Assembly: GCA_043810345.1 (NCBI GenBank) | Contig: JBDROF010000102.1 | Span: 22,118 to 86,117 of the forward strand | Source of the DNA: Bacteroidota bacterium | Lineage (GTDB): Bacteria > Bacteroidota > Bacteroidia > Bacteroidales > FEN-979 | DNA: 64,000 nt | Direction: 5' to 3' | Shown: positions 30,214-50,694 of the stretch, one piece after another | Layout: every line of letters starts with the position of its first letter | Numbering within the stretch: the stretch's first letter is position 1 | The notes under the pieces: model-generated | Databases searched by the model: none | Told to the model about the DNA's origin: nothing | The model's input: the letters and a program-made list of their open reading frames with translations, nothing else | Translations under genes and position numbers: made by a program

Positions 30214-30610
30214 ATGAGAATTTTTGCAAAATAACTTCCCTTGAAAACAGATAAAGCTACATAAAATAGTTGGTTGATTTTCAGGTGTAACCCTTCTTCT
30301 AATATCTTTGCCCCGGCCACCTTCTTTCGTTAGTAATTCGTTTTATTGTAAAAAAATCGTTTGCTTACGATACCGAAAAAGGTTATTTTTCTCCTTCCCC
30401 TTCTATTCTGTAATGATTATTTTAAAGCAATAAGTATGCCAAAAATATAATTACCTAACATTCAATACATTAAAAATCAGATTGTCGGAATGAAAAGAAA
30501 AAGGTGTCAAAATATTTGAAACTGGTGTAAATAAATTGGACAGTGTAAAAAGGAAAAATACCAGGAGTGCAATAAAAAAACCGGCCCACAATTCATGAGC
30601 CGGCTTTCGT

Positions 30611-30650
30611 CCATGGCAATAAATGGCAATCCATGGCAATAAATGGCAAT
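30611..30650. repeat. tandem duplication of a 20-mer CCATGGCAATAAATGGCAAT (sub-period 10)
   Basis: Positions 30611-30630 and 30631-30650 are identical. The repeat lies 17 nt downstream of the response-regulator stop codon. Confidence 0.95.
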
Positions 30651-30666
30651 CAACCGATCTCTTCCC

Positions 30667-41310: not shown

Positions 41311-42648
41311 TTAATCCAGGTAATTATTAATAGGTCCGTAAGCATGAAAGAAGCCGGTCAACAGCACCGTGTTGACATCGTTCTCGTTGAAAGCCACTTT
41401 GTCAGCTACCAGTTTGAGCCCGATCTCTTTGGATCGTCTGGCATAATTTGTAGCCAGCTTGGCACCGAGCGTATTCATCCCCTTAATTTCATCAAAGATC
41501 GCTTTCAGAAGATCCTCTTTCTGCAGTGAAAATGCAACGCTTTTCCATGGCTGCATGGAGGCAGGCATGGGGCCAAGCTTTGCGTCACAGGCACCCTGAA
41601 AGCCGGAGATCATCACGTACTCCCTTGTGTCAGGGTTGAATACACCAACAGGCCTCCCCTTCTCATACTTCAGGATCCCATCTTTCTGGGAACCGTCAGA
41701 ATACTGGCCTCCAAGAATTCCCTGTTCAATCAACCGGTCGAGCAGGTCGCTGTGGAGGTCTTCACCCTTCAGGAACGGGTTCATCACACTCATGATATAC
41801 TGGCAGACATCCACTCCGACATAATCGATCAACTGAAAAATACCCATGGGCCGGACGAGGTATTCCTGGCTGACTTTGTTTACCATATACATGGCTTCGG
41901 GCAGGGAACACTCCTTCGCAAGTTTTTCCGCCACGTGGATTCCGTGAAGCGCATCCCGCATGAAATGTCCATTCCCTACAAATCCGGCAAAGTCGCTGGA
42001 GGGAACCACTACCTTCCGTAAGCTCTTGGCATACTGAAGAGCTAACTCCTCCACTTCAGGTAGGGTATGATTGCTCTTGATCACTTCAACCAATTTTTGA
42101 ACTGCCGGAGGGTTATAAAAATGGAACCCGATGATCCGTCCACCCAGGTTGGCCTTTTCGTCAAGCTGTGTGATAGGGATGGAGGAAGTGTTTGTAAAGT
42201 ACCAGGGTTTGTGGGGATTGTTCCGGTCTACCTGGGTGAGGATCTTCACCTTCAGCTCCGGATCCTCTTTGATCGCTTCAAAGATCAACGTGGAGTTGTA
42301 GGAGACCTCCAGATGTAAAGAGGGGCGGATGGTCACCATGACATCTTCGACATACTGCAGGATGATCTCTTCGTTATCGATCAGATCAGCCCTGTCGGCA
42401 TACGCTGCCCTGAGCTGAACAGTTTTCTTCTCTGCGGCCTTCAGCGCCTGAGCCCGTATGTACTTCATCAGGCCAATCAGGGCTTCGTTTGACACATCAA
42501 TGGCGTTGATCACGAAAGCCTTCCCCTTGTTCTCGGGCTTCAGGCTCAGATCAGCCATCTCCTGTGCCGTCAGGAGCAGGATACCGCTACCCATCTTCCC
42601 GGCGGCTCCCAGGACAGTGACATTGGATAATCTTTCAGTGTAGTTCAT
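41311..42648 (-). CDS. 3-hydroxyacyl-CoA dehydrogenase family protein (long form)
   Basis: The start is set at the ATG at 42648 (MNYTERLSNVTVLGAAGKMGSG, an NAD-binding GxGxxG). It lies between the thiolase and crotonase genes. Confidence 0.75.
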   Translation of the reverse strand: MNYTERLSNVTVLGAAGKMGSGILLLTAQEMADLSLKPENKGKAFVINAIDVSNEALIGLMKYIRAQALKAAEKKTVQLRAAYADRADLIDNEEIILQYVEDVMVTIRPSLHLEVSYNSTLIFEAIKEDPELKVKILTQVDRNNPHKPWYFTNTSSIPITQLDEKANLGGRIIGFHFYNPPAVQKLVEVIKSNHTLPEVEELALQYAKSLRKVVVPSSDFAGFVGNGHFMRDALHGIHVAEKLAKECSLPEAMYMVNKVSQEYLVRPMGIFQLIDYVGVDVCQYIMSVMNPFLKGEDLHSDLLDRLIEQGILGGQYSDGSQKDGILKYEKGRPVGVFNPDTREYVMISGFQGACDAKLGPMPASMQPWKSVAFSLQKEDLLKAIFDEIKGMNTLGAKLATNYARRSKEIGLKLVADKVAFNENDVNTVLLTGFFHAYGPINNYLD

Positions 42649-42693
42649 AAGTTTGGATTGATTTTTCGATATATTATAATCTATTATTTTGAC

Positions 42694-42733
42694 GGTCATA
42701 AGGTCATGGAGTGATGAGGTGATGAGGTGATGA
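42694..42733 (-). repeat. five phased octamers; minus-strand reading CTTCATCA CCTCATCA CCTCATCA CTCCATGA CCTTATGA
   Basis: The plus strand reads GGTCATAA GGTCATGG AGTGATGA GGTGATGA GGTGATGA. It belongs to the same family as 49024-49055 and lies 10 nt downstream of the crotonase stop codon. Confidence 0.9.
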
Positions 42734-43614: not shown

Positions 43615-45018
43615 ATGCGCCGCACAAAAATCATCGCCACGCTTGGACCAGCCAGCCAGTCACCAGAGGTGATCAGGCAACTGATCCTTGCAGGTATGGA
43701 TGTGGCCCGGCTGAATTTTTCCCACGGGACTTACCAGGATCATGCCAGGGCGATCGGTAACCTCCGGAGGATCAGTGCCGAACTGGATAAACCTGTCACG
43801 ATTCTTCAGGATCTGCAAGGGCCGAAGATCAGGGTGGGTATGCTTCCCGAAGGAGAGATGAATCTGGAAAAAGGGGCCGTGATGAAGCTGGTTCCGGAGA
43901 CACTCTTTTCAGGATCACAAGATGAGATCCCGATCGATTATCCTTATACCGCAGCGGAAACAAAGCCAGGTACACAGGTGTTGCTTGATGATGGCTTGCT
44001 TGAAATGAAGGTCAACCGGGTTGATGGAGATGTGGTGATCTGTCAGGTCGTGGAAGGAGGAACCCTGAGGCAACGCAAAGGGGTGAATTTTCCAACCCTG
44101 AACCTGAAACTGCCCTCCCTGACAGAAAAAGACAAGCGTGACCTGGATTTTGGAATCGCCCATGATGTGGATTGGGTCTCGTTGAGTTTTGTACGAAGCG
44201 TTGCAGACGTACGGGAATTGAAATCGATCCTTGAGAGTTTGGGAAACCTGAAACCGGTGATTGCCAAGATCGAAAAACCTCAGGCTATTGAACACCTGAA
44301 AGAGATTGTCGAGGAGGCTCAAGGGATCATGGTTGCCCGCGGCGACCTGGGTGTGGAGCTGAGTCCGGAGAAGGTTCCTCTGCTGCAGAAACAGATCATC
44401 GAACATTGTAACCGCATGGGTAAGCCGGTGATCACTGCTACCCAGATGCTTGAGAGCATGATGCATACAGCACGTCCTACCCGCGCCGAAGCTTCGGATG
44501 TGGCTAATGCGATCATCGATGGGACCGACTGCATCATGCTTTCGGGGGAGACAGCCGCAGGAAGTTTCCCTGTTAAGTCTGTGGAGATCATGAGTAAAAT
44601 TGCCACAGAGGTGGAATCACAAATTGAATTTAAAACCTATCCCCCGGAAGGAAACCTGGATATCATGGCACTCAGTGAAGCAACCAACATGATTGAAAAG
44701 ATTGCTGAACCCCATTGTGTGGTCGTGCTCACCACCAGTGGCAGAAGCGCCCGTTTTGTTGCTGCAGAGCGCCCGAAAACGCCCATTTATGCCATCACCA
44801 CCGACCTGAATGTCTACCATGGACTCAACCTGTTATGGGGGATCAACCCGATCCTGGTGTCGATGATATCCAGTACATTCGACGACCTTGTCAACTTGGC
44901 AGAACAAACACTCCTGAAAAGAGGACTGGCTGCTCCGGGGAATAAAATTATTGTTGTCGGAGGTGTGCCTGCAGGTATTCCCGGAGGGACCAACTTCATT
45001 AAAATTCATACCATCTAA
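43615..45018 (+). CDS. pyk: pyruvate kinase
   Basis: 467-aa ORF with MRRTKIIATLGPAS, ...ARLNFSHG... and ...MVARGDLGVE... motifs. Confidence 0.95.
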   Translation: MRRTKIIATLGPASQSPEVIRQLILAGMDVARLNFSHGTYQDHARAIGNLRRISAELDKPVTILQDLQGPKIRVGMLPEGEMNLEKGAVMKLVPETLFSGSQDEIPIDYPYTAAETKPGTQVLLDDGLLEMKVNRVDGDVVICQVVEGGTLRQRKGVNFPTLNLKLPSLTEKDKRDLDFGIAHDVDWVSLSFVRSVADVRELKSILESLGNLKPVIAKIEKPQAIEHLKEIVEEAQGIMVARGDLGVELSPEKVPLLQKQIIEHCNRMGKPVITATQMLESMMHTARPTRAEASDVANAIIDGTDCIMLSGETAAGSFPVKSVEIMSKIATEVESQIEFKTYPPEGNLDIMALSEATNMIEKIAEPHCVVVLTTSGRSARFVAAERPKTPIYAITTDLNVYHGLNLLWGINPILVSMISSTFDDLVNLAEQTLLKRGLAAPGNKIIVVGGVPAGIPGGTNFIKIHTI

Positions 45019-45037
45019 CCCAAAAAGCCCACGAAAA

Positions 45038-45093
45038 AATTCGTAATTCGTAATTGGCTCCGCCGAGCTCCGCTTCGCTCCGGTTCGTAATTA
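45038..45093 (+). repeat. AATTCGT heptamers flanking the conserved core TGGCTCCGCCGAGCTCCGC..GCTCCGGTTC
   Basis: The sequence reads AATTCGT AATTCGT AATTGGCTCCGCCGAGCTCCGCTTCGCTCCGGTTCGTAATTA. It lies between the convergent pyk and LytTR-regulator stop codons. The core is shared with 26341-26392. Confidence 0.85.
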
Positions 45094-45852
45094 TAATTTA
45101 AGTGTTTCCTTCAATACCTTATATCCCGATGTACTTGCTTTCAGACTGGTCCCATCCTGCATCAGTACAGCGTAGCTCTCTTTGTCGTAATATTCGAGTT
45201 TGTCCATGAAATCAACGTTGATGATAGTAGAGCGGTGAATCCTCACAAACATGGTGGGATCAAGATGCGTTTCAAAGTATTTCATGGTCTTTTCCTTCAG
45301 AAACCGCTCCTTTTCCGTGTGAATGGTAACATAGTCACCATCCGCTTCAAAGTACCTGATATCATGGACCGGGATCACGTAAACCTTATGTCTGACCTTC
45401 ACGGCAATCCGGGTGAGAAGATCCGGTTGCTCATTCACTACCCGAAGAATGTTTTTCACTGGTTTAACACTTCCTGAGCCAGTGGAAAGAACGCCCAGGG
45501 CTTTTACCATAGCCTGGTCGAACCGTTCTCTGGCATAGGGTTTCAGCAGGTAGTCGACCGCATTCATCTCAAATGCTTTGATGGCAAATTGATCAAACGC
45601 CGTACTGAAGATGATTACCGGTGGATCATCCAGCAACTCCAGCATCTCGAAACCGGTCAGTTTTGGCATCTGGATATCAAGGAAAATGAGATCGGGTTTC
45701 AGCTCCTGGATCGCTTTCAGTCCGGAGAATCCATCCGGATACTCCCCTGCCACTTCCAGCGTTGGGTATTCCATGAGGTAATCCCTGATGATCTGACGGG
45801 CAGGAGGTTCATCATCAATGATCAGGACTTTGTATTTTCGGTCATTTGTCAT
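45091..45852 (-). CDS. LytTR-family DNA-binding response regulator
   Basis: 253-aa ORF with an N-terminal REC domain (VLIIDDEPPAR...IFLDIQMPKLTG) and a C-terminal LytTR domain (...IRYFEADGDYVTIHT...). Confidence 0.9.
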   Translation of the reverse strand: MTNDRKYKVLIIDDEPPARQIIRDYLMEYPTLEVAGEYPDGFSGLKAIQELKPDLIFLDIQMPKLTGFEMLELLDDPPVIIFSTAFDQFAIKAFEMNAVDYLLKPYARERFDQAMVKALGVLSTGSGSVKPVKNILRVVNEQPDLLTRIAVKVRHKVYVIPVHDIRYFEADGDYVTIHTEKERFLKEKTMKYFETHLDPTMFVRIHRSTIINVDFMDKLEYYDKESYAVLMQDGTSLKASTSGYKVLKETLKL

Positions 45853-45868
45853 TGGCCATTAGTCATTA
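45841..45868 (-). repeat. four phased heptamers; minus-strand reading TAATGAC TAATGGC CAATGAC AAATGAC (AATGACC family), containing the regulator start codon
   Basis: The plus strand reads GTCATTT GTCATTG GCCATTA GTCATTA. The ATG at 45852-45850 is the ATG of the third unit. Confidence 0.9.
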
Positions 45869-45890
45869 AAGGCATTAAGGGAAATTATTT

Positions 45891-45911
45891 TGAATTCTGA
45901 ATTCTGAATTA
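45891..45911 (-). repeat. three heptamers TGAATTC TGAATTC TGAATTA (minus-strand reading TAATT CAGAATT CAGAATT CA)
   Basis: It overlaps the histidine-kinase stop codon (45909-45911). Same family and same gene-relative orientation as 50655-50682. Confidence 0.9.
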
Positions 45912-46958
45912 ATTAACCGGTATCCTCAACCTGACAAAGTACCTGTTCCCCTTTTTCCATGTTTTTAATAAATCATTCCGGTGATAAGTAAGCCTGAGTC
46001 GCTCTCTGATGTTGTTCAATCCTACCCCGGCCCCTTTGCGGGGAACGGCTTCCGGGTCAAAATCGTTGACAATGGTAATCTCAGTGAAATCAGATTCTAC
46101 CCTGCACTCCGTCTCAATCCGGACCTGGTCGGTACTTTCGTAAACACCATGTTTGATCGCATTTTCATAAAGCGGCTGCAATAACATCACAGGGATTTGC
46201 TGGTCATAGCAATCTTGACGGATATCTAGTTCATAGACAAGCTTCTCCCCAAACCGGATTTTTTCGATCTCGAGGTATCGTTGGATATTTTCAAGCTCTC
46301 TGGAGAGAGGTGTCAGGCTGTCGGCTCCGGATGAGACTGAATACCTCAGGAAATCCGAAAGTTTGATCACCATCTCCCGTGCCTTCTCCGGGTTACTCAC
46401 CGTCAGGGAACTGATGGAATTCAGGCTATTGAACAGGAAATGTGGATTGATTTGAGATTTCAACATATTCAATTCGGTCTCTTTCAACAGGGTGTTTAAC
46501 CGGGCCTCCATCTTCAGTTTCTCCTCCAGGTTGAAATTGTATATCAACAGGTAGAATGTAAGTCCCACGAGAATATAGAGGAACACTCCACTGAAAAGCC
46601 TGACCGGGATGGATACATATAGAAAGTCGTTGTAAGCCGTCTGGCCCTGGAACAACGTAGAGAGCACAGAATATCCTACACCGAACCAGATCACGATGAT
46701 CAGCACCAATGAGGTCATATGGTTGAATATGATGTTGAAGCTGGACTTCCTGGTTGGTGAACTGTAGCGCACGATAAACCACATTGGCAGTCCGATCAGC
46801 GCAAAAAGAAGGTTGAAGATCAGGCTGTCGGCCAGGGCTATCTCAAGCGGAAAATGATATTGAAAAGTGAGAATGGAAAACTGGATCCCGGCCAGAAGGA
46901 TCCAGACCCCAAAATAGAGAATAGTTGTTTTTATGTTTTGAAATACAGGATGCTGCAT
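45909..46958 (-). CDS. LytS/YehU-type sensor histidine kinase
   Basis: 349-aa ORF with an N-terminal TM bundle, then ...LKSQINPHFLFNSLNSISSL... (His_kinase/PF06580-type H-box) and a C-terminal ATPase region. Confidence 0.85.
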   Translation of the reverse strand: MQHPVFQNIKTTILYFGVWILLAGIQFSILTFQYHFPLEIALADSLIFNLLFALIGLPMWFIVRYSSPTRKSSFNIIFNHMTSLVLIIVIWFGVGYSVLSTLFQGQTAYNDFLYVSIPVRLFSGVFLYILVGLTFYLLIYNFNLEEKLKMEARLNTLLKETELNMLKSQINPHFLFNSLNSISSLTVSNPEKAREMVIKLSDFLRYSVSSGADSLTPLSRELENIQRYLEIEKIRFGEKLVYELDIRQDCYDQQIPVMLLQPLYENAIKHGVYESTDQVRIETECRVESDFTEITIVNDFDPEAVPRKGAGVGLNNIRERLRLTYHRNDLLKTWKKGNRYFVRLRIPVN

Positions 46959-46969
46959 TTATGGCCTGA

Positions 46970-47719
46970 TTAATAACTTTTAATCTCACCGCCACCAAAA
47001 ATGGCTTCAGCTTTGATGATCAGAATGCGTGAGGGATCCGGACTCTCTTTGATCACACTCCTTTTGTCTTCAAATCCACCGAGGATGGAAGAGTTTCTTA
47101 CCACGATTTTCCAGTCAGCAGGAACAATCACGGTGGCTCCTCCGAAGATGGCACTGACTTCGAGCGTATGCTCACCGGGAGCCAGGGCAGCATGGGTCAG
47201 GTCCACCTCCGCTCCCCCGAAGATACAGGAGATCTTCCCCCCTTTGAACGACTGGTGGGTAACTTTTTGGTTGGTCCCTCCGAAGATTGTCTCTAAGTTG
47301 ATATACCCGTCTTTCAGCATCAGCTCCCCCTTGCTCCGGCGCAGTCCAGACCTCCTGAATCCCTTGAACAGGATAATCAACCCGATCGCGATCAGAATGG
47401 CCGGCCAGAACAGGCTATGGATACTAAAGGGCAACACACCGAATTTAGGAATGATGAATATCCCGCCAACCAGGATCAGGATGATCCCGGGTACATAACT
47501 TTCTCTGCCGAAAAGGCTGACCACTCCAATGACGATGAGTAACATCTGCCAGGAAAAAATAATAGATTTCCATGTTATTGGAATAAATCCAACATTTAAA
47601 CCGAGCAGGATCAGGCCGGCCAGAATCGCAACCGATCCAAGTGCATATTTCTTCATACGCCTGCCGTTTGAGTAATTATCCGTTTTGTAGCCGGAATGTT
47701 GATCAATGGATGAATTCAT
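46970..47719 (-). CDS. LiaF-like cell-envelope stress membrane protein (DUF2154-type C-terminal domain)
   Basis: 249-aa ORF with four N-terminal TM segments. The C-terminal repeated ...IFGGxxV... strands (ISCIFGGAEVDL, VSAIFGGATVIV, AEAIFGGGEI) are typical of LiaF-type proteins. Confidence 0.65.
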   Translation of the reverse strand: MNSSIDQHSGYKTDNYSNGRRMKKYALGSVAILAGLILLGLNVGFIPITWKSIIFSWQMLLIVIGVVSLFGRESYVPGIILILVGGIFIIPKFGVLPFSIHSLFWPAILIAIGLIILFKGFRRSGLRRSKGELMLKDGYINLETIFGGTNQKVTHQSFKGGKISCIFGGAEVDLTHAALAPGEHTLEVSAIFGGATVIVPADWKIVVRNSSILGGFEDKRSVIKESPDPSRILIIKAEAIFGGGEIKSY

Positions 47720-47959
47720 TTTTTAGATTTTAAAGTTATACATTTTTTGCTGAAGCAAAATTAATTTGTGCGAATCGCTCTGAGAACAGGCTTTCGGTGG
47801 GTGCCCGATTTTTCCCGGTGAAACCCGGAATTTGTATTTTTGTTCGTGCCTGTTAATAACAATGAAGACACGGAAATCACGAAAAAATACAGATTAATCC
47901 GTGAAAATCCATATAAATCCGGATAATCTGTGTTCCAATAAATCCTTAGCTTTGCAGGG

Positions 47960-48958
47960 ATGAAGCTTTCATTTTACAAATATCACGGAACAGGCAATGA
48001 TTTCATTCTGGTCGATAACAGGGAAGGAACAATCGCACTATCGAAAAAGCAGATCGAACGTTTGTGTGATCGTCATTTTGGCGTCGGTGCCGACGGGCTG
48101 ATGTTACTTACTTCCGAAAAGGGGTATGATTTCGGCATGGTCTACTTCAATGCCGATGGGAACGAAAGCACCCTATGCGGGAACGGAGGCAGGTGCATAA
48201 CAGCCTTCGCACATATGCTGGGTATCATCGGTCAATCCGCCCGGTTTCTGGCCAGCGACGGCGAACATACTGCCAAAATCCTGAAAGACGAAGGGAATGT
48301 GAAATGGGTCCGGTTGAAAATGGCGGATGTAACTACCCCTCCCCTGGCCCCTCCCCAACAAGGGAGGGGAGTATCGGATATCGAAACAGATAAATCGTCC
48401 TTCGTCCTTCGTCCTTCGTCTTTCTTAATCAACACCGGCTCTCCCCATCTGGTTATCTTCGTTGAGAACGTGAGTGAAATAGATGCTGTATCAGAGGGCC
48501 GTAAACTCCGGGACGATCCCCAATTCGCCCCGGATGGAACCAATGTCGATTTCGTGGAGATCATGGAATCCAATCTCTTCGTCAGGACCTATGAACGAGG
48601 GGTGGAGAATGAGACACTCTCCTGTGGTACGGGGGTAACGGCGGCAGCAATGGCCTATGCCAGTTGGCAGTCCGCAGTCCGCAGTCCACAGTCCGCAGTC
48701 CTCAGTCCGCAGTCCGCAGTCCACAGTCCGCAGTCCGCAGTCCGCAGTCCAAAAATATCCAGGACCCAGCATCCAGGATCCAGCATCGAAATAGAAACAC
48801 TTGGCGGCAAACTGACCGTTTCCTTCCGGTTTGAGGATGGAACATTTACGGATATCTGGCTGAAGGGACCGGCGGAGCATGTTTTCAGCGGGGAGATCGA
48901 GGTTCGTGAAACGAGGGACGAGAGACGAGGGACGAGGGACGAAGAACTTAAGAGGTAA
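47960..48958 (+). CDS. dapF: diaminopimelate epimerase carrying in-frame repeat-derived insertions and a repeat-encoded tail
   Basis: The DapF core is recognisable: FYKYHGTGNDFILVD, NADGNESTLCGNGGRC, NTGSPHLVIFV, RTYERGVENETLSCGTG. The ORF is 332 aa versus 274 aa for E. coli DapF. The extra segments coincide with the repeats at 48336-48422, 48667-48784 and 48907-48958. Confidence 0.85.
   Translation: MKLSFYKYHGTGNDFILVDNREGTIALSKKQIERLCDRHFGVGADGLMLLTSEKGYDFGMVYFNADGNESTLCGNGGRCITAFAHMLGIIGQSARFLASDGEHTAKILKDEGNVKWVRLKMADVTTPPLAPPQQGRGVSDIETDKSSFVLRPSSFLINTGSPHLVIFVENVSEIDAVSEGRKLRDDPQFAPDGTNVDFVEIMESNLFVRTYERGVENETLSCGTGVTAAAMAYASWQSAVRSPQSAVLSPQSAVHSPQSAVRSPKISRTQHPGSSIEIETLGGKLTVSFRFEDGTFTDIWLKGPAEHVFSGEIEVRETRDERRGTRDEELKR
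48336..48370. repeat. GC-rich hairpin element (CCCCTCCC / GGGAGGGG family) inside dapF
   Basis: The sequence reads CCCCTCCCCtggCCCCTCCCcaacaaGGGAGGGGa. An 8-bp stem pairs 48348-48355 with 48362-48369, and the C-rich arm is duplicated at 48336-48344. It translates in frame as TPPLAPPQQGRG. Confidence 0.85.
48395..48422 (-). repeat. four phased heptamers TCGTCCT x3, TCGTCTT (reverse complement of the GGACGA words) inside dapF
   Basis: Read directly. It translates in frame as SSFVLRPSSF. Confidence 0.9.
48667..48750 (+). repeat. 12 phased heptamers (GCAGTCC with A/T variants), 84 nt, in frame inside dapF
   Basis: The units are GCAGTCC x3, ACAGTCC, GCAGTCC, TCAGTCC, GCAGTCC x2, ACAGTCC, GCAGTCC x3. 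The 21-nt super-period gives the peptide repeat QSAVRSP/QSAVLSP/QSAVHSP/QSAVRSP. Confidence 0.97.
48757..48784 (+). repeat. tandem 14-mer ATCCAGGA(C/T)CCAGC x2 inside dapF
   Basis: Read directly, immediately after the heptamer array. It is translated as ISRTQHPGSS. Confidence 0.85.
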
Positions 48959-48976
48959 GAGGTGAATCGTGAATAG
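48907..48976 (+). repeat. 10 phased heptamers TGAAACG AGGGACG AGAGACG AGGGACG AGGGACG AAGAACT TAAGAGG TAAGAGG TGAATCG TGAATAG
   Basis: It shows the same word progression as 26300-26341 and, in reverse, 38615-38684. It encodes the dapF tail (ETRDERRGTRDEELKR) and contains the dapF stop codon TAA (48956-48958). Confidence 0.95.
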
Positions 48977-49002
48977 TACAAATTATAAGTATTGCCAACT
49001 TC

Positions 49003-49023
49003 GGACTGAGGACTGAGGACTCC
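49003..49023 (-). repeat. three heptamers GGACTGA GGACTGA GGACTCC (reverse complement of the 48667 array units)
   Basis: The reverse complement of GGACTGA is TCAGTCC, a unit variant present in the intragenic array. Confidence 0.9.
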
Positions 49024-49055
49024 CTTCATGACCTCATGACCTCATGACCTCATGA
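49024..49055 (+). repeat. four phased octamers CTTCATGA CCTCATGA CCTCATGA CCTCATGA
   Basis: Read directly. Same family and same gene-relative orientation as 42694-42733. Confidence 0.95.
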
Positions 49056-49072
49056 CCCTATAACTATTGACG

Positions 49073-49093
49073 AATGACCAATGACCAATGATC
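49073..49093 (+). repeat. three heptamers AATGACC AATGACC AATGATC containing the GNAT start codon
   Basis: The ATG at 49088 is the ATG of the third unit. The two upstream unit ATGs open 5-codon out-of-frame mini-ORFs (MTNDQ*, MTNDP*). Confidence 0.9.
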
Positions 49094-49624
49094 CATAACC
49101 TCCTCACCGGCCCCTCACTAGCCCTCAGGGCTGTTGAACCCGTTGATGTGGATCTCCTGCTGAAGTGGGAGAACGACACCTCCGTCTGGAAAGTGAGTAA
49201 TACCGTCACACCCTATTCAAGGTTTGAGTTGGAGGAGTATGTCCTGAATGCCAAACGGGATATCTTTTCTGCCCGGCAACTGAGGCTGATGATTGACCGT
49301 ATTGATGGCGTGGATCCTCCGGTAACCATCGGGACCATTGACCTGTACGATTTCGACCCGGTGCATCTCAGGGCAGGGGTTGGCATCATGATCGCCGAAG
49401 AGTTCCGGGAACAGGGTCATGCCAAAGAAGCCCTGAAGATGTTGATCCGATATGCGGTGGAAAGTCTTCTCCTGCATCAACTGTTCTGCCATATCTCATC
49501 AGACAACCACATCAGTATCAAAGTTTTTGAAAAACTTGGTTTCATCCGCTGCGGGGAGAAAAAAGAGTGGCTTAATTCCGGCGAAGGGTGGTTGGATGAA
49601 TACATATACCAACTGATTCTATAA
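49088..49624 (+). CDS. GNAT-family N-acetyltransferase (RimJ/RimL-like)
   Basis: 178-aa ORF with ...VGIMIAEEFREQGHAKEALKMLIRYA... (acetyl-CoA-binding motif-A-like region). Confidence 0.75.
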   Translation: MIHNLLTGPSLALRAVEPVDVDLLLKWENDTSVWKVSNTVTPYSRFELEEYVLNAKRDIFSARQLRLMIDRIDGVDPPVTIGTIDLYDFDPVHLRAGVGIMIAEEFREQGHAKEALKMLIRYAVESLLLHQLFCHISSDNHISIKVFEKLGFIRCGEKKEWLNSGEGWLDEYIYQLIL

Positions 49625-49629
49625 CATCC

Positions 49630-50694
49630 ATGCACCTCTTTTTTCGAATCACCATCCTGCGTATCCTTCCATTCCTTCTCCTGGCAGCTCTGCTTGTGGG
49701 TACAGAGCGGCTCTACTTCCGGATCCACACGGCTGTAATCGACCTGGGAGATGCCGATCATGCATGGTTAACTATTCCTACCGGGGCAGGGTTCAACCAG
49801 GTGAAAGACAGTCTGTACCATCATGATTACGTCAGCAAAAAGAAATTCTTTGAAAACTACGTTGAACTGGGGAAGTACGACCATTATTTCAAGCCTGGCA
49901 GGTACAGGCTCCGGAACCGGATGAATGCCCGGGAACTGGTTGATATGCTGATCATGGGATTCCAGACCCCGGTGAATGTTTCATTCCACAACATCCGGAA
50001 AAAAGAGGAGCTTGCGGGCAGGATCGCCCGTCAGATCGAGGCCGATAGCCTGAGCCTGCTGACGGTTCTTTCTGACAACACCATCCTTTCTCAATACGAC
50101 GTAACTCCTCTGACGGTGTTCACCTTGACCATCCCCAACACCTATGAGATGTGGTGGAATTCCACAGCAGAAGACTTTATGGCACGAATGGCAACAGAAT
50201 CCAGGAAGTTCTGGAAAGGGGCCCGGACACGGAAGGCCGATTCCATCGGTTTGACCATTCCTGAAGTGGTTACCCTGGCCTCCATCATTGAGAAGGAGAC
50301 CACGAAGAATGATGAAAAGCCTTTGATTGCCGGTGTCTATATCAACCGCCTTCAAAAAAAATGGCCCCTTCAGGCCGATCCTACCCTGATCTATGCATGG
50401 GATGATTTCACAATCAACCGGGTCCTGAACCGACATAAAAAGATAAATTCTCCCTATAACACCTATAAAAACAGAGGCCTTCCTCCTGGACCCATCTGTC
50501 TCCCCTCAATCACCTCGATCGATGCGGTGTTGAACTACCGGGATCATAAGAATATGTACTTTTGTGCGAAGGAGGATTTCTCAGGATACCACGTTTTCTC
50601 CTCCACCATGAGTGAGCATAACAGAAATGCAAGGCGGTATCAGGAGGCGTTTAATAGAATTAAGAATTCAGAATTCAGAATTACAAATATATGA
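49630..50694 (+). CDS. mltG: endolytic murein transglycosylase MltG (YceG-like)
   Basis: 354-aa ORF with an N-terminal TM anchor and the ...VTLASIIEKETTKNDEKPLIAGVYINRL...LQADPTLIYA...SPYNTYKNRGLPPGPICLPS... YceG signature. The C-terminal ...IKNSEFRITNI is encoded by a heptamer array. Confidence 0.88.
   Translation: MHLFFRITILRILPFLLLAALLVGTERLYFRIHTAVIDLGDADHAWLTIPTGAGFNQVKDSLYHHDYVSKKKFFENYVELGKYDHYFKPGRYRLRNRMNARELVDMLIMGFQTPVNVSFHNIRKKEELAGRIARQIEADSLSLLTVLSDNTILSQYDVTPLTVFTLTIPNTYEMWWNSTAEDFMARMATESRKFWKGARTRKADSIGLTIPEVVTLASIIEKETTKNDEKPLIAGVYINRLQKKWPLQADPTLIYAWDDFTINRVLNRHKKINSPYNTYKNRGLPPGPICLPSITSIDAVLNYRDHKNMYFCAKEDFSGYHVFSSTMSEHNRNARRYQEAFNRIKNSEFRITNI
50655..50682 (+). repeat. 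four phased heptamers TAGAATT AAGAATT CAGAATT CAGAATT
   Basis: Read directly, within the last 13 codons of mltG. Confidence 0.9.

Follow-up and report, generated by a model that had tools for sequence, protein, structure and literature searches.

Why should the start codons of two unrelated genes, on opposite strands of the same stretch of DNA, each lie inside a tandem heptamer repeat whose units carry ATGs of their own? The stretch in question, 64,000 nt long and called the window from here on, is part of contig C102 of G000, a 2.96-Mb MAG in 124 contigs from an uncultured Bacteroidales. Its nearest named relatives are Bacteroidales MAGs, some of them labeled Prolixibacteraceae. An initial annotation had described the arrays around both starts, had argued that the same architecture at two loci was no coincidence and had proposed that the short ORFs stacked over each start, or changes in the number of units, set the level of translation.

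The first gene encodes a GNAT acetyltransferase of 178 aa (Pfam Acetyltransf_3; 49088..49624, plus strand). Its start is the third ATG of a core heptamer array, AATGACC AATGACC AATGATC (49073..49093, plus strand; ATGs at 49074, 49081 and 49088), which TRF reports as a row of period 7 and 3.4 copies at 49068-49091. Read in a single 7-nt phase, judged by eye, the array extends over 49058..49099 on the same strand as six degenerate units, CTATAAC TATTGAC GAATGAC CAATGAC CAATGAT CCATAAC, of which the outer ones are without an ATG and the last two encode GNAT codons 1-4. Two mini-ORFs open within the core: MTNDQ* (49074..49091), whose TGA at 49089-49091 overlaps the GNAT ATG as ATGA, and MTNDP* (49081..49098), whose stop, TAA at 49096-49098, lies 8 nt into the GNAT CDS. 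Upstream is an octamer array, TCATGACC x4 (49026..49057, plus strand; TRF period 8, 4 copies), which places four further ATGs 5' of GNAT. Its mini-ORFs (MTS*, MTS*, MTS* and MTL*) are three codons each, with MTS* stopping on the ATGA of the next unit, and its sequence is self-complementary (TCATGA), giving a weak hairpin with a z-score of -1.95.

The second gene, on the minus strand at 45091..45852, encodes a LytTR-family response regulator of 253 aa (Response_reg plus LytTR). The array at its start reads TTAATGCC T TTAATGAC TAATGGC CAATGAC AAATGAC (45841..45878, minus strand), with ATGs at 45875, 45866, 45859, 45852 (the real start) and 45845. The part from 45868 to 45841, TAATGAC TAATGGC CAATGAC AAATGAC, corresponds to a TRF row at 45841-45868 of period 7 and 4.0 copies. 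MPLMTNGQ* and MTNGQ* share one frame (45849..45875, minus strand) and a TGA that overlaps the regulator ATG 45852 as ATGA; the TGA of MANDK* (45842..45859, minus strand) overlaps the out-of-frame ATG 45845. At both starts the sequence, the ATG positions, the 7-nt spacing and the mini-ORF peptides are just as the initial annotation had them. It had missed two ATGs at the regulator: 45875, in frame with MTNGQ* and giving MPLMTNGQ*, and 45845, out of frame within the regulator CDS and giving MTENTKS*. It had also missed the octamer array at 49026-49057, the six-unit phase at 49058-49099 and a third case in the window, at 42692-42707. There, on the minus strand, the gene at 41311-42699 begins in the second unit of CCATGACC TTATGACC (42692..42707), and an upstream mini-ORF, MTL*, stops on the gene's ATGA. 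The product of this gene is 462 aa long with the N terminus MTVKIIDYN, and the rest of the 43-nt spacer to the upstream gene consists of CTCATCAC x3. A search of Rfam over 45000-50000 returned nothing relevant at E <=1, and fold z-scores of the array leaders (-0.32 and -1.95) gave no significant structure.

Are these ATGs the true starts? The arrays could be chance, or the starts misplaced, with the real ones downstream. Three ATGs 7 nt apart are found at 75 loci in the genome and about 50 times in a Markov-shuffled one, so the pattern alone is not rare. Our gene calls are also crude (longest ORF plus codon score, giving 2262 genes and 86% coding); the caller takes the first in-frame start codon, which inflates the number of starts called in arrays and leaves strand bias unaffected. 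The orthologs argue otherwise. In nine members of the genus the position of the GNAT start is conserved, and their N termini (MTN[DNSH]LLTG, against MIHNLLTG in the window) align without a gap to ATG 49088. Regulator orthologs in the genus begin at the position of ATG 45852, with MT[KQN][ED]..Y[KR]VLIIDDE. Between either ATG and the conserved protein core there is no alternative start codon. A GHMP-type kinase on contig C7 is a third case in G000 with an ortholog-aligned start. Ortholog N termini thus place both starts inside the arrays and not downstream of them, the outcome that the initial annotation had said would undo its reading. With ATGAC clusters occurring 3-4 times as often as chance predicts, and lying at starts in 17-18 sense cases against 0 antisense, we find chance or misplacement hardly credible.

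The neighborhood of both genes is itself repetitive. Upstream of the regulator, and in the same direction, is a LytS-type histidine kinase (45909..46958, minus strand); the 56-nt spacer between them is made up of ATTCAGA x3.4 and, after it, the ATGAC-type array. Upstream of GNAT, and again in the same direction, is dapF (47960..48958, plus strand), from which GNAT is separated by 129 nt made up almost wholly of arrays. In a relative, G005 (L002), the TGA of dapF overlaps the GNAT ATG as ATGA, and because of that overlap the sequences suggest that dapF and GNAT once lay tightly joined and that the window's 129-nt spacer grew between them. The dapF gene holds in-frame heptamer arrays of its own, GCAGTCC x12 at 48667-48750 and TCGTCCT x4.3 at 48395-48424, and its C-terminal tail and stop fall in ACGAGGG x4.6 (48911-48942). 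On the far side of the regulator, the sister species (L131-L133) has a 353-aa gene with a weak PHP-domain match before pyruvate kinase; the window has no such gene, and there (45018-45091) regulator and pyruvate kinase are 72 nt apart.

Much of what catches the eye in these arrays is arithmetic. Seven is 1 modulo 3, so successive ATGs rotate through the three frames, and the ATGA within the unit closes each frame with a TGA. A mini-ORF that opens in unit i stops on the ATGA of unit i+2 in heptamers, or of unit i+1 in octamers, as is seen at both loci, and at each focal locus one mini-ORF stops on the ATGA of the real start. Every upstream ATG at the focal loci opens a mini-ORF of at most 8 codons, and a TGA in each unit combined with a period of 7 yields stops in three frames. 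The real start is in one of the last two units because a long ORF can exit the array only from there. The stacked mini-ORFs had been taken as a sign of design; since the stack is forced by the unit sequence, automatic for any 7-nt unit with ATGA, it is uninformative on that point. The companion idea, that a change in unit number could switch the gene, also falls away. Every unit brings its own ATG, so one ATG is always at a fixed distance from the gene body. Read from its sequence, then, the array is slip-proof: gain or loss of units cannot frameshift the gene, and the array is not an on/off switch. In species with 1-5 units N-terminal length is unchanged, and neither unit counts nor upstream ATGs are conserved across species.

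How general is this arrangement? G000 carries an extraordinary load of short repeats: 799 perfect heptamer arrays of at least 3 copies against 0 in a Markov shuffle, with an excess also at period 8 (309), period 9 (116) and period 10 (95). The TRF rows of period 7 number 734, of which 347 are intergenic, 239 coding, 106 over stop codons and 42 over start codons. Within this load ATGAC stands apart. Clusters of at least two ATGACs at 7-8-nt spacing number 39 in the genome, where about 11 are expected and a reversed-word control gives 4. Counting those within 40 nt of a gene boundary, 17-18 are at starts in the sense direction and 0 in antisense (two-sided binomial ~1.5e-5), while at stop codons there are 3-5 sense and 3-4 antisense. 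No such gathering at starts in sense is seen for any of the remaining 15 ATGNN words; ATGAA opens 529 genes, yet forms 1 such cluster. Nor is the sense excess at starts significant when ATG-bearing arrays of 7-10-mers are pooled over all words (32 vs 21, p = 0.17), and of TGAC[CT] arrays without an ATG, 0/7 are start-associated.

The preference extends beyond G000. Across this genome and four others of the genus we counted 32 AATGAC[CT]-type arrays; 15 have the start of a long ORF in the last or next-to-last unit and a further 8 have a start 11-29 nt downstream, so that 23/32 are start-proximal. AATGACC and AATGACT also occur in six other Bacteroidales families, at 1-2 loci each, 4-5 of 10 being start-proximal in sense. 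About one-third of arrays end 6-30 nt 5' of a start that is not ATGAC. Enrichment inside operons was not significant (14 co-directional vs 2 divergent, against a background of 72%). The genome count that the initial annotation had proposed thus finds ATGAC clusters both in excess and biased to starts, and its argument against coincidence stands, on different grounds: ATGAC[CT] arrays are a start-associated family in genome and genus, and the shared architecture is no coincidence because it is a word-family effect, not design. The focal arrays belong to this NATGAC[CT] family, of period 7 or 8, whose members sit at the 5' edge of genes, on the coding strand, and have as the real, conserved start the ATG of the last or next-to-last unit. 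The family is one among the many short tandem repeats with which intergenic spacers are filled throughout the genus.

Other repeats in G000 have habits of their own. Many word families hold fixed strand and end preferences relative to genes; purine-rich words of the GAGACGT, GACGAAG and AAGACGT type lie on the coding strand at stop codons, and over all arrays of a family placement at stop codons reaches 18/29 for ACGTCTC and 17/28 for AAGGACG. A dispersed, part-palindromic element of about 45 nt (CCCCCTAAAGGGGGAGTAAGTCCCCTTCAGGGGATTTAGGGG), REP- or MITE-like in look, is found just 5' of several ATGAC arrays and gene starts (contigs C20, C80 and C110 of G000; relatives L139, L142 and L143). A 9/10-mer family, GCAATGATG / GTGCAATGAT, puts two to four ATGs within 21 nt 5' of many called starts, with examples in the window at 30610-30651 and on G000 contigs C8, C16, C22, C33, C34, C38, C49, C50, C67, C71, C78 and C89. 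We also considered a fixed composite element, a TTTCC..TAATGAC phrase, and dropped it: the pattern is unspecific, and most of its matches fall by chance in coding sequence.

What made these arrays? The explanation we favor, and hold to be probable, is that they are tolerated, slip-proof products of start-region duplication in a genome given to heptamer repeats throughout. Replication slippage or tandem duplication would have copied a 7-8-nt segment holding the start of genes that open with ATG-ACN (Met-Thr); often the start would be Met-Thr-Asn-Asp, encoded as ATGACNAATGAC, which already amounts to 1.7 units. With its own ATG and TGA in each unit, such an array could then be tolerated on a start codon, because a change in unit number never frameshifts the gene; a heptamer of another kind would disrupt the reading frame there. 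Of 125 genes that start with ATGAC, 9 have one more ATGAC unit at -7 to -9, compared with 8/1467 other ATG-start genes. At three orthologous starts (GNAT, the regulator and the GHMP-type kinase) species differ in the period and flanks of their ATGAC-core copies: the 7-mer AATGACC here, the 8-mers CTTATGAC and TTAATGAC in L006, the 9-mer TTTAATGAC in L144, and one extra copy or none elsewhere. Read as sequence, these differing periods and flanks fit with repeated local duplication of the start region. At the GNAT start the ATG may even have been handed over by a 7-nt insertion, as the window and its closest relative, L001, match at 20/24 positions with one 7-nt gap and at 16/24 without (our own reading).

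Duplication does not account for everything. Generic seeding from any start codon fails as a full explanation, given that ATGAC is the only one of 16 ATGNN words to gather at starts. A second unit within the CDS (ATGACNNATGAC) as the required seed gave few genes for comparison, only 6 having it. Local duplication leaves both the exclusivity of ATGAC and the presence of the same words in other families unexplained. Those shared words in six families, along with the non-ATGAC starts 6-30 nt away, hint at a favored word or a function over pure local duplication; selection, too, would be consistent with the 17:0 strand bias and with arrays that persist in several species at orthologous sites.

If there is a function, one candidate is that the repeats are binding sites in mRNA (or DNA) for a trans-acting factor, the ATG being incidental, as has been proposed for the TAACTGA repeats of Beggiatoaceae. 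The forward orientation, closeness to starts and three-frame stops are common to those repeats (PMC4679880), and the recurrence of the same words in several Bacteroidales families and the many arrays that end 6-30 nt 5' of non-ATGAC starts both sit well with a binding site. So does the way that distal, degenerate units keep TGAC and lose the A of ATG (12/19 changes in the ATGAC core, in a test biased by how arrays are defined). The rest of the evidence pulls the other way. TGAC[CT] arrays without an ATG are never at starts (the 0/7 above), the period varies between 7, 8 and 9, many orthologous starts have no array, there is no conserved structure or Rfam family, and no candidate factor was found. 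We regard a binding site as quite improbable.

A different kind of function is that suggested by the initial annotation, evolved control of the uORF type, in which stacked mini-ORFs were selected to tune the main ORF and slippage adjusts the level. The strict sense-strand bias at starts speaks for it, as does the recurrence of arrays at the same gene starts in several species. At each locus, too, a mini-ORF ends on the ATGA of the real start, an overlap that supports termination-reinitiation (PMC6728339). Against it, the geometry is forced by the unit sequence, the genes are functionally unrelated (GNAT, a response regulator, a GHMP kinase and others) and ATG-bearing arrays pooled over words have no sense enrichment at starts (32 vs 21, p = 0.17).

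Evolutionary turnover weighs on the same side. Across species, the number of upstream ATG units at orthologous sites ranges from 0 to 5. At the regulator start there are 4-5 ATG units in the window, 3 in a sister species whose kinase is 92% identical, and 2 in the P0002 group with none upstream of the start; G004 has an ATG-less array, AATAACC x3, G009 has a different one, GAAGGAC, and G005, G007 and G008 have no such array. Neither the position nor the peptide of the upstream ORFs, by whose conservation a regulatory uORF is recognized, is conserved in this set of 0-5 upstream ATGs and ATG-less versions. A separate pair of orthologs (MTKKQRL...), G000 C16:12829-14985 on the minus strand and its counterpart on L096 of G003, has an array at the start in both; L096 has three ATG units; its G000 counterpart has lost the ATG from both upstream units, which are AATAACC and AATTAACC there.

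Among strains the picture is divided. The initial annotation had suggested comparing unit counts, and we did so in the sister species. The AATGACC start array has 3 units in 4/4 near-identical, independent assemblies. Two of them, L132 and L133, are separated in 5.4 kb by 1 SNP and one 35-nt (5-unit) indel; the indel falls in an AATTACG/ATTTACG array immediately 3' of the regulator (L132 5157-5254 vs L133 2404-2466) and reflects either units quickly gained or lost, or a repeat collapsed in assembly. Arrays, then, probably change quickly in this lineage; the start array is without polymorphism among the four sister-species assemblies. When the exact GNAT and regulator proteins were looked up, no further strain of the species to which the window belongs turned up, and two metagenome pattern scans gave either no match or only a different species. 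Unit number (0-5), period and upstream ATGs that are not conserved, ATG-less AATAACC at the same sites, and four near-identical strains that agree on 3 start units while the neighboring AATTACG array differs by 5 together make evolved uORF-type control, in our judgment, unlikely.

Tolerated duplication of the start region, the reading we prefer, would still leave the ribosome with extra AUGs to contend with. Bacteroidia ribosomes do not use Shine-Dalgarno pairing (PMC7797042), and in F. johnsoniae AUG is under-represented around starts, which has been read as selection against spurious initiation (PMC6847099). The ratio of ATG to GAT in this genome follows the same trend: it is 0.66 on the upstream side of starts and 0.58 on the downstream side, compared with 0.71-0.77 in mid-gene. 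Two or more ATGs between -21 and -1 are found in 45/1592 ATG-start genes, a set to which the GCAATGATG / GTGCAATGAT family contributes much. In Bacteroidia, then, with no use of Shine-Dalgarno pairing and AUG normally avoided near starts (PMC6847099, and our own ATG/GAT ratios), extra AUGs should matter, a point that belongs on the credit side of uORF-type control. The decoy AUGs share the context of the real start (CAAUGA) and the region is unstructured by fold z-scores, and for that reason some competition among AUGs is expected. Extra AUGs with the local context of the real one would compete with it as decoys and reduce initiation at the true start, probably incidentally; one of the two decoy lanes could return ribosomes to the start through its AUGA overlap; and the effect would be graded, not on/off. 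Decoy competition where Shine-Dalgarno pairing is not used is plausible.

There is a more adventurous possibility. ATGA-bearing arrays of period 7-8 could be "stop-and-restart tracks" that pass terminating ribosomes from unit to unit until they reach the real AUG. Such tracks would close all three frames and keep co-directional genes coupled across growing spacers without Shine-Dalgarno recognition. The cleanest candidate example is in the sister species, where the spacer between kinase and regulator is just 13 nt, all of it array (TAA, TGACCAATGACCA, ATG), and where, with no gap, TAATG at the kinase stop leads into one 5-codon mini-ORF and this in turn into the ATGA of the regulator start. 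The TAACTGA repeats of other low-Shine-Dalgarno lineages could be a related three-frame-stop device. We think the idea of tracks a long shot.

Whatever their origin, the arrays are useful. About 1% of the genes in this lineage show the ribosome two to seven AUGs in identical context, 7-8 nt apart, of which one is productive. Because Bacteroidia pick their starts without Shine-Dalgarno pairing and normally avoid extra AUGs nearby, these natural leaders are ready-made test cases for how ribosomes without such pairing choose among neighboring AUGs, and for whether termination-reinitiation at AUGA works without a Shine-Dalgarno sequence. There is a warning here for annotation as well: start calls in such genomes need ortholog support, and an N-terminal Met-Thr-Asn-Asp may be repeat-derived.

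How do the arrays compare with what has been described in other bacteria? Repeats in 5' coding sequence are familiar from translational phase variation, as in lic1 of H. influenzae, where CAAT repeats are combined with alternative ATGs, and in the opa genes of Neisseria, with CTCTT. Like our arrays, these are short repeats at a gene's 5' end; their period is not divisible by three, and ATGs occur in more than one frame. At phase-variable loci a unit change shifts the frame, whereas here it leaves the frame intact; the genes here are housekeeping or regulatory and not surface antigens, and the start array is identical in 4/4 sister-species assemblies. A slippage-prone repeat can thus occupy a start codon and never switch the gene off, which is the reverse of how a classical contingency locus behaves.

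Long simple sequence repeats also bear comparison. According to the summary in PMC4679880 of the work of Mrazek, Guo and Shah (2007), heptamers dominate among prokaryotic repeats of this kind with 5-11-nt units. This genome is alike, and like the cyanobacterial STRR heptamers, in having period 7 dominant and hundreds of arrays, mostly noncoding. The arrays have head-to-tail units within 5-11 nt and numbers above composition, although the focal ones are short (3-4 units). Slippage has been proposed for long simple sequence repeats, and in this lineage unit number may differ between close strains (the 35-nt indel of L132 vs L133). What separates the present family from them is its strict preference for one strand and one position at gene starts. 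To our knowledge, long simple sequence repeats as a class have not been described as carrying the start codon. The cyanobacterial STRR2 unit is reported to be TTGGTCA (Mazel et al. 1990); its opposite strand reads TGACCAA, which is AATGACC rotated. A preprint on Nostoc describes heptamers near or overlapping start codons and speculates on their roles (bioRxiv 10.1101/2022.06.06.494920).

Translational coupling by termination-reinitiation at ATGA or TAATG overlaps is also known (Huber et al. 2019, PMC6728339). Shared with it are the stop that overlaps the real start as ATGA and the unbroken chain in the sister species. The known cases of that coupling join two real genes directly, whereas here there would be a putative chain of repeat-born mini-ORFs. 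We know of no earlier description of such a chain.

The nearest relatives are the TAACTGA heptamers, direct repeats found upstream of starts in marine Beggiatoaceae, some Cyanobacteria and some Bacteroidetes (MacGregor 2015, PMC4679880). They too provide three-frame stops, and their role is putative (PMC4679880). Both sets consist of tandem heptamers, mostly intergenic, that put stops in all three frames 5' of functionally unrelated genes; both are sporadic across lineages, with a role that is putative. Our arrays share their closeness to starts, with 17-18 in sense and 0 in antisense in G000 and 23/32 in the genus. The words differ: AATGACC, AATGACT, TAATGAC and TCATGACC are none of them a rotation of TAACTGA, and the unit is neither TAACTGA nor a one-step variant of it. 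Most TAACTGA arrays finish 1 nt short of the start and bring in no AUG, whereas the unit here contains an ATG, so that the start codon itself can be a repeat unit, accompanied by decoy AUGs and ATGA-linked mini-ORFs. The family at these starts is therefore a variant of the start-proximal heptamer repeats of the TAACTGA type, new in its word and new in carrying the start codon.
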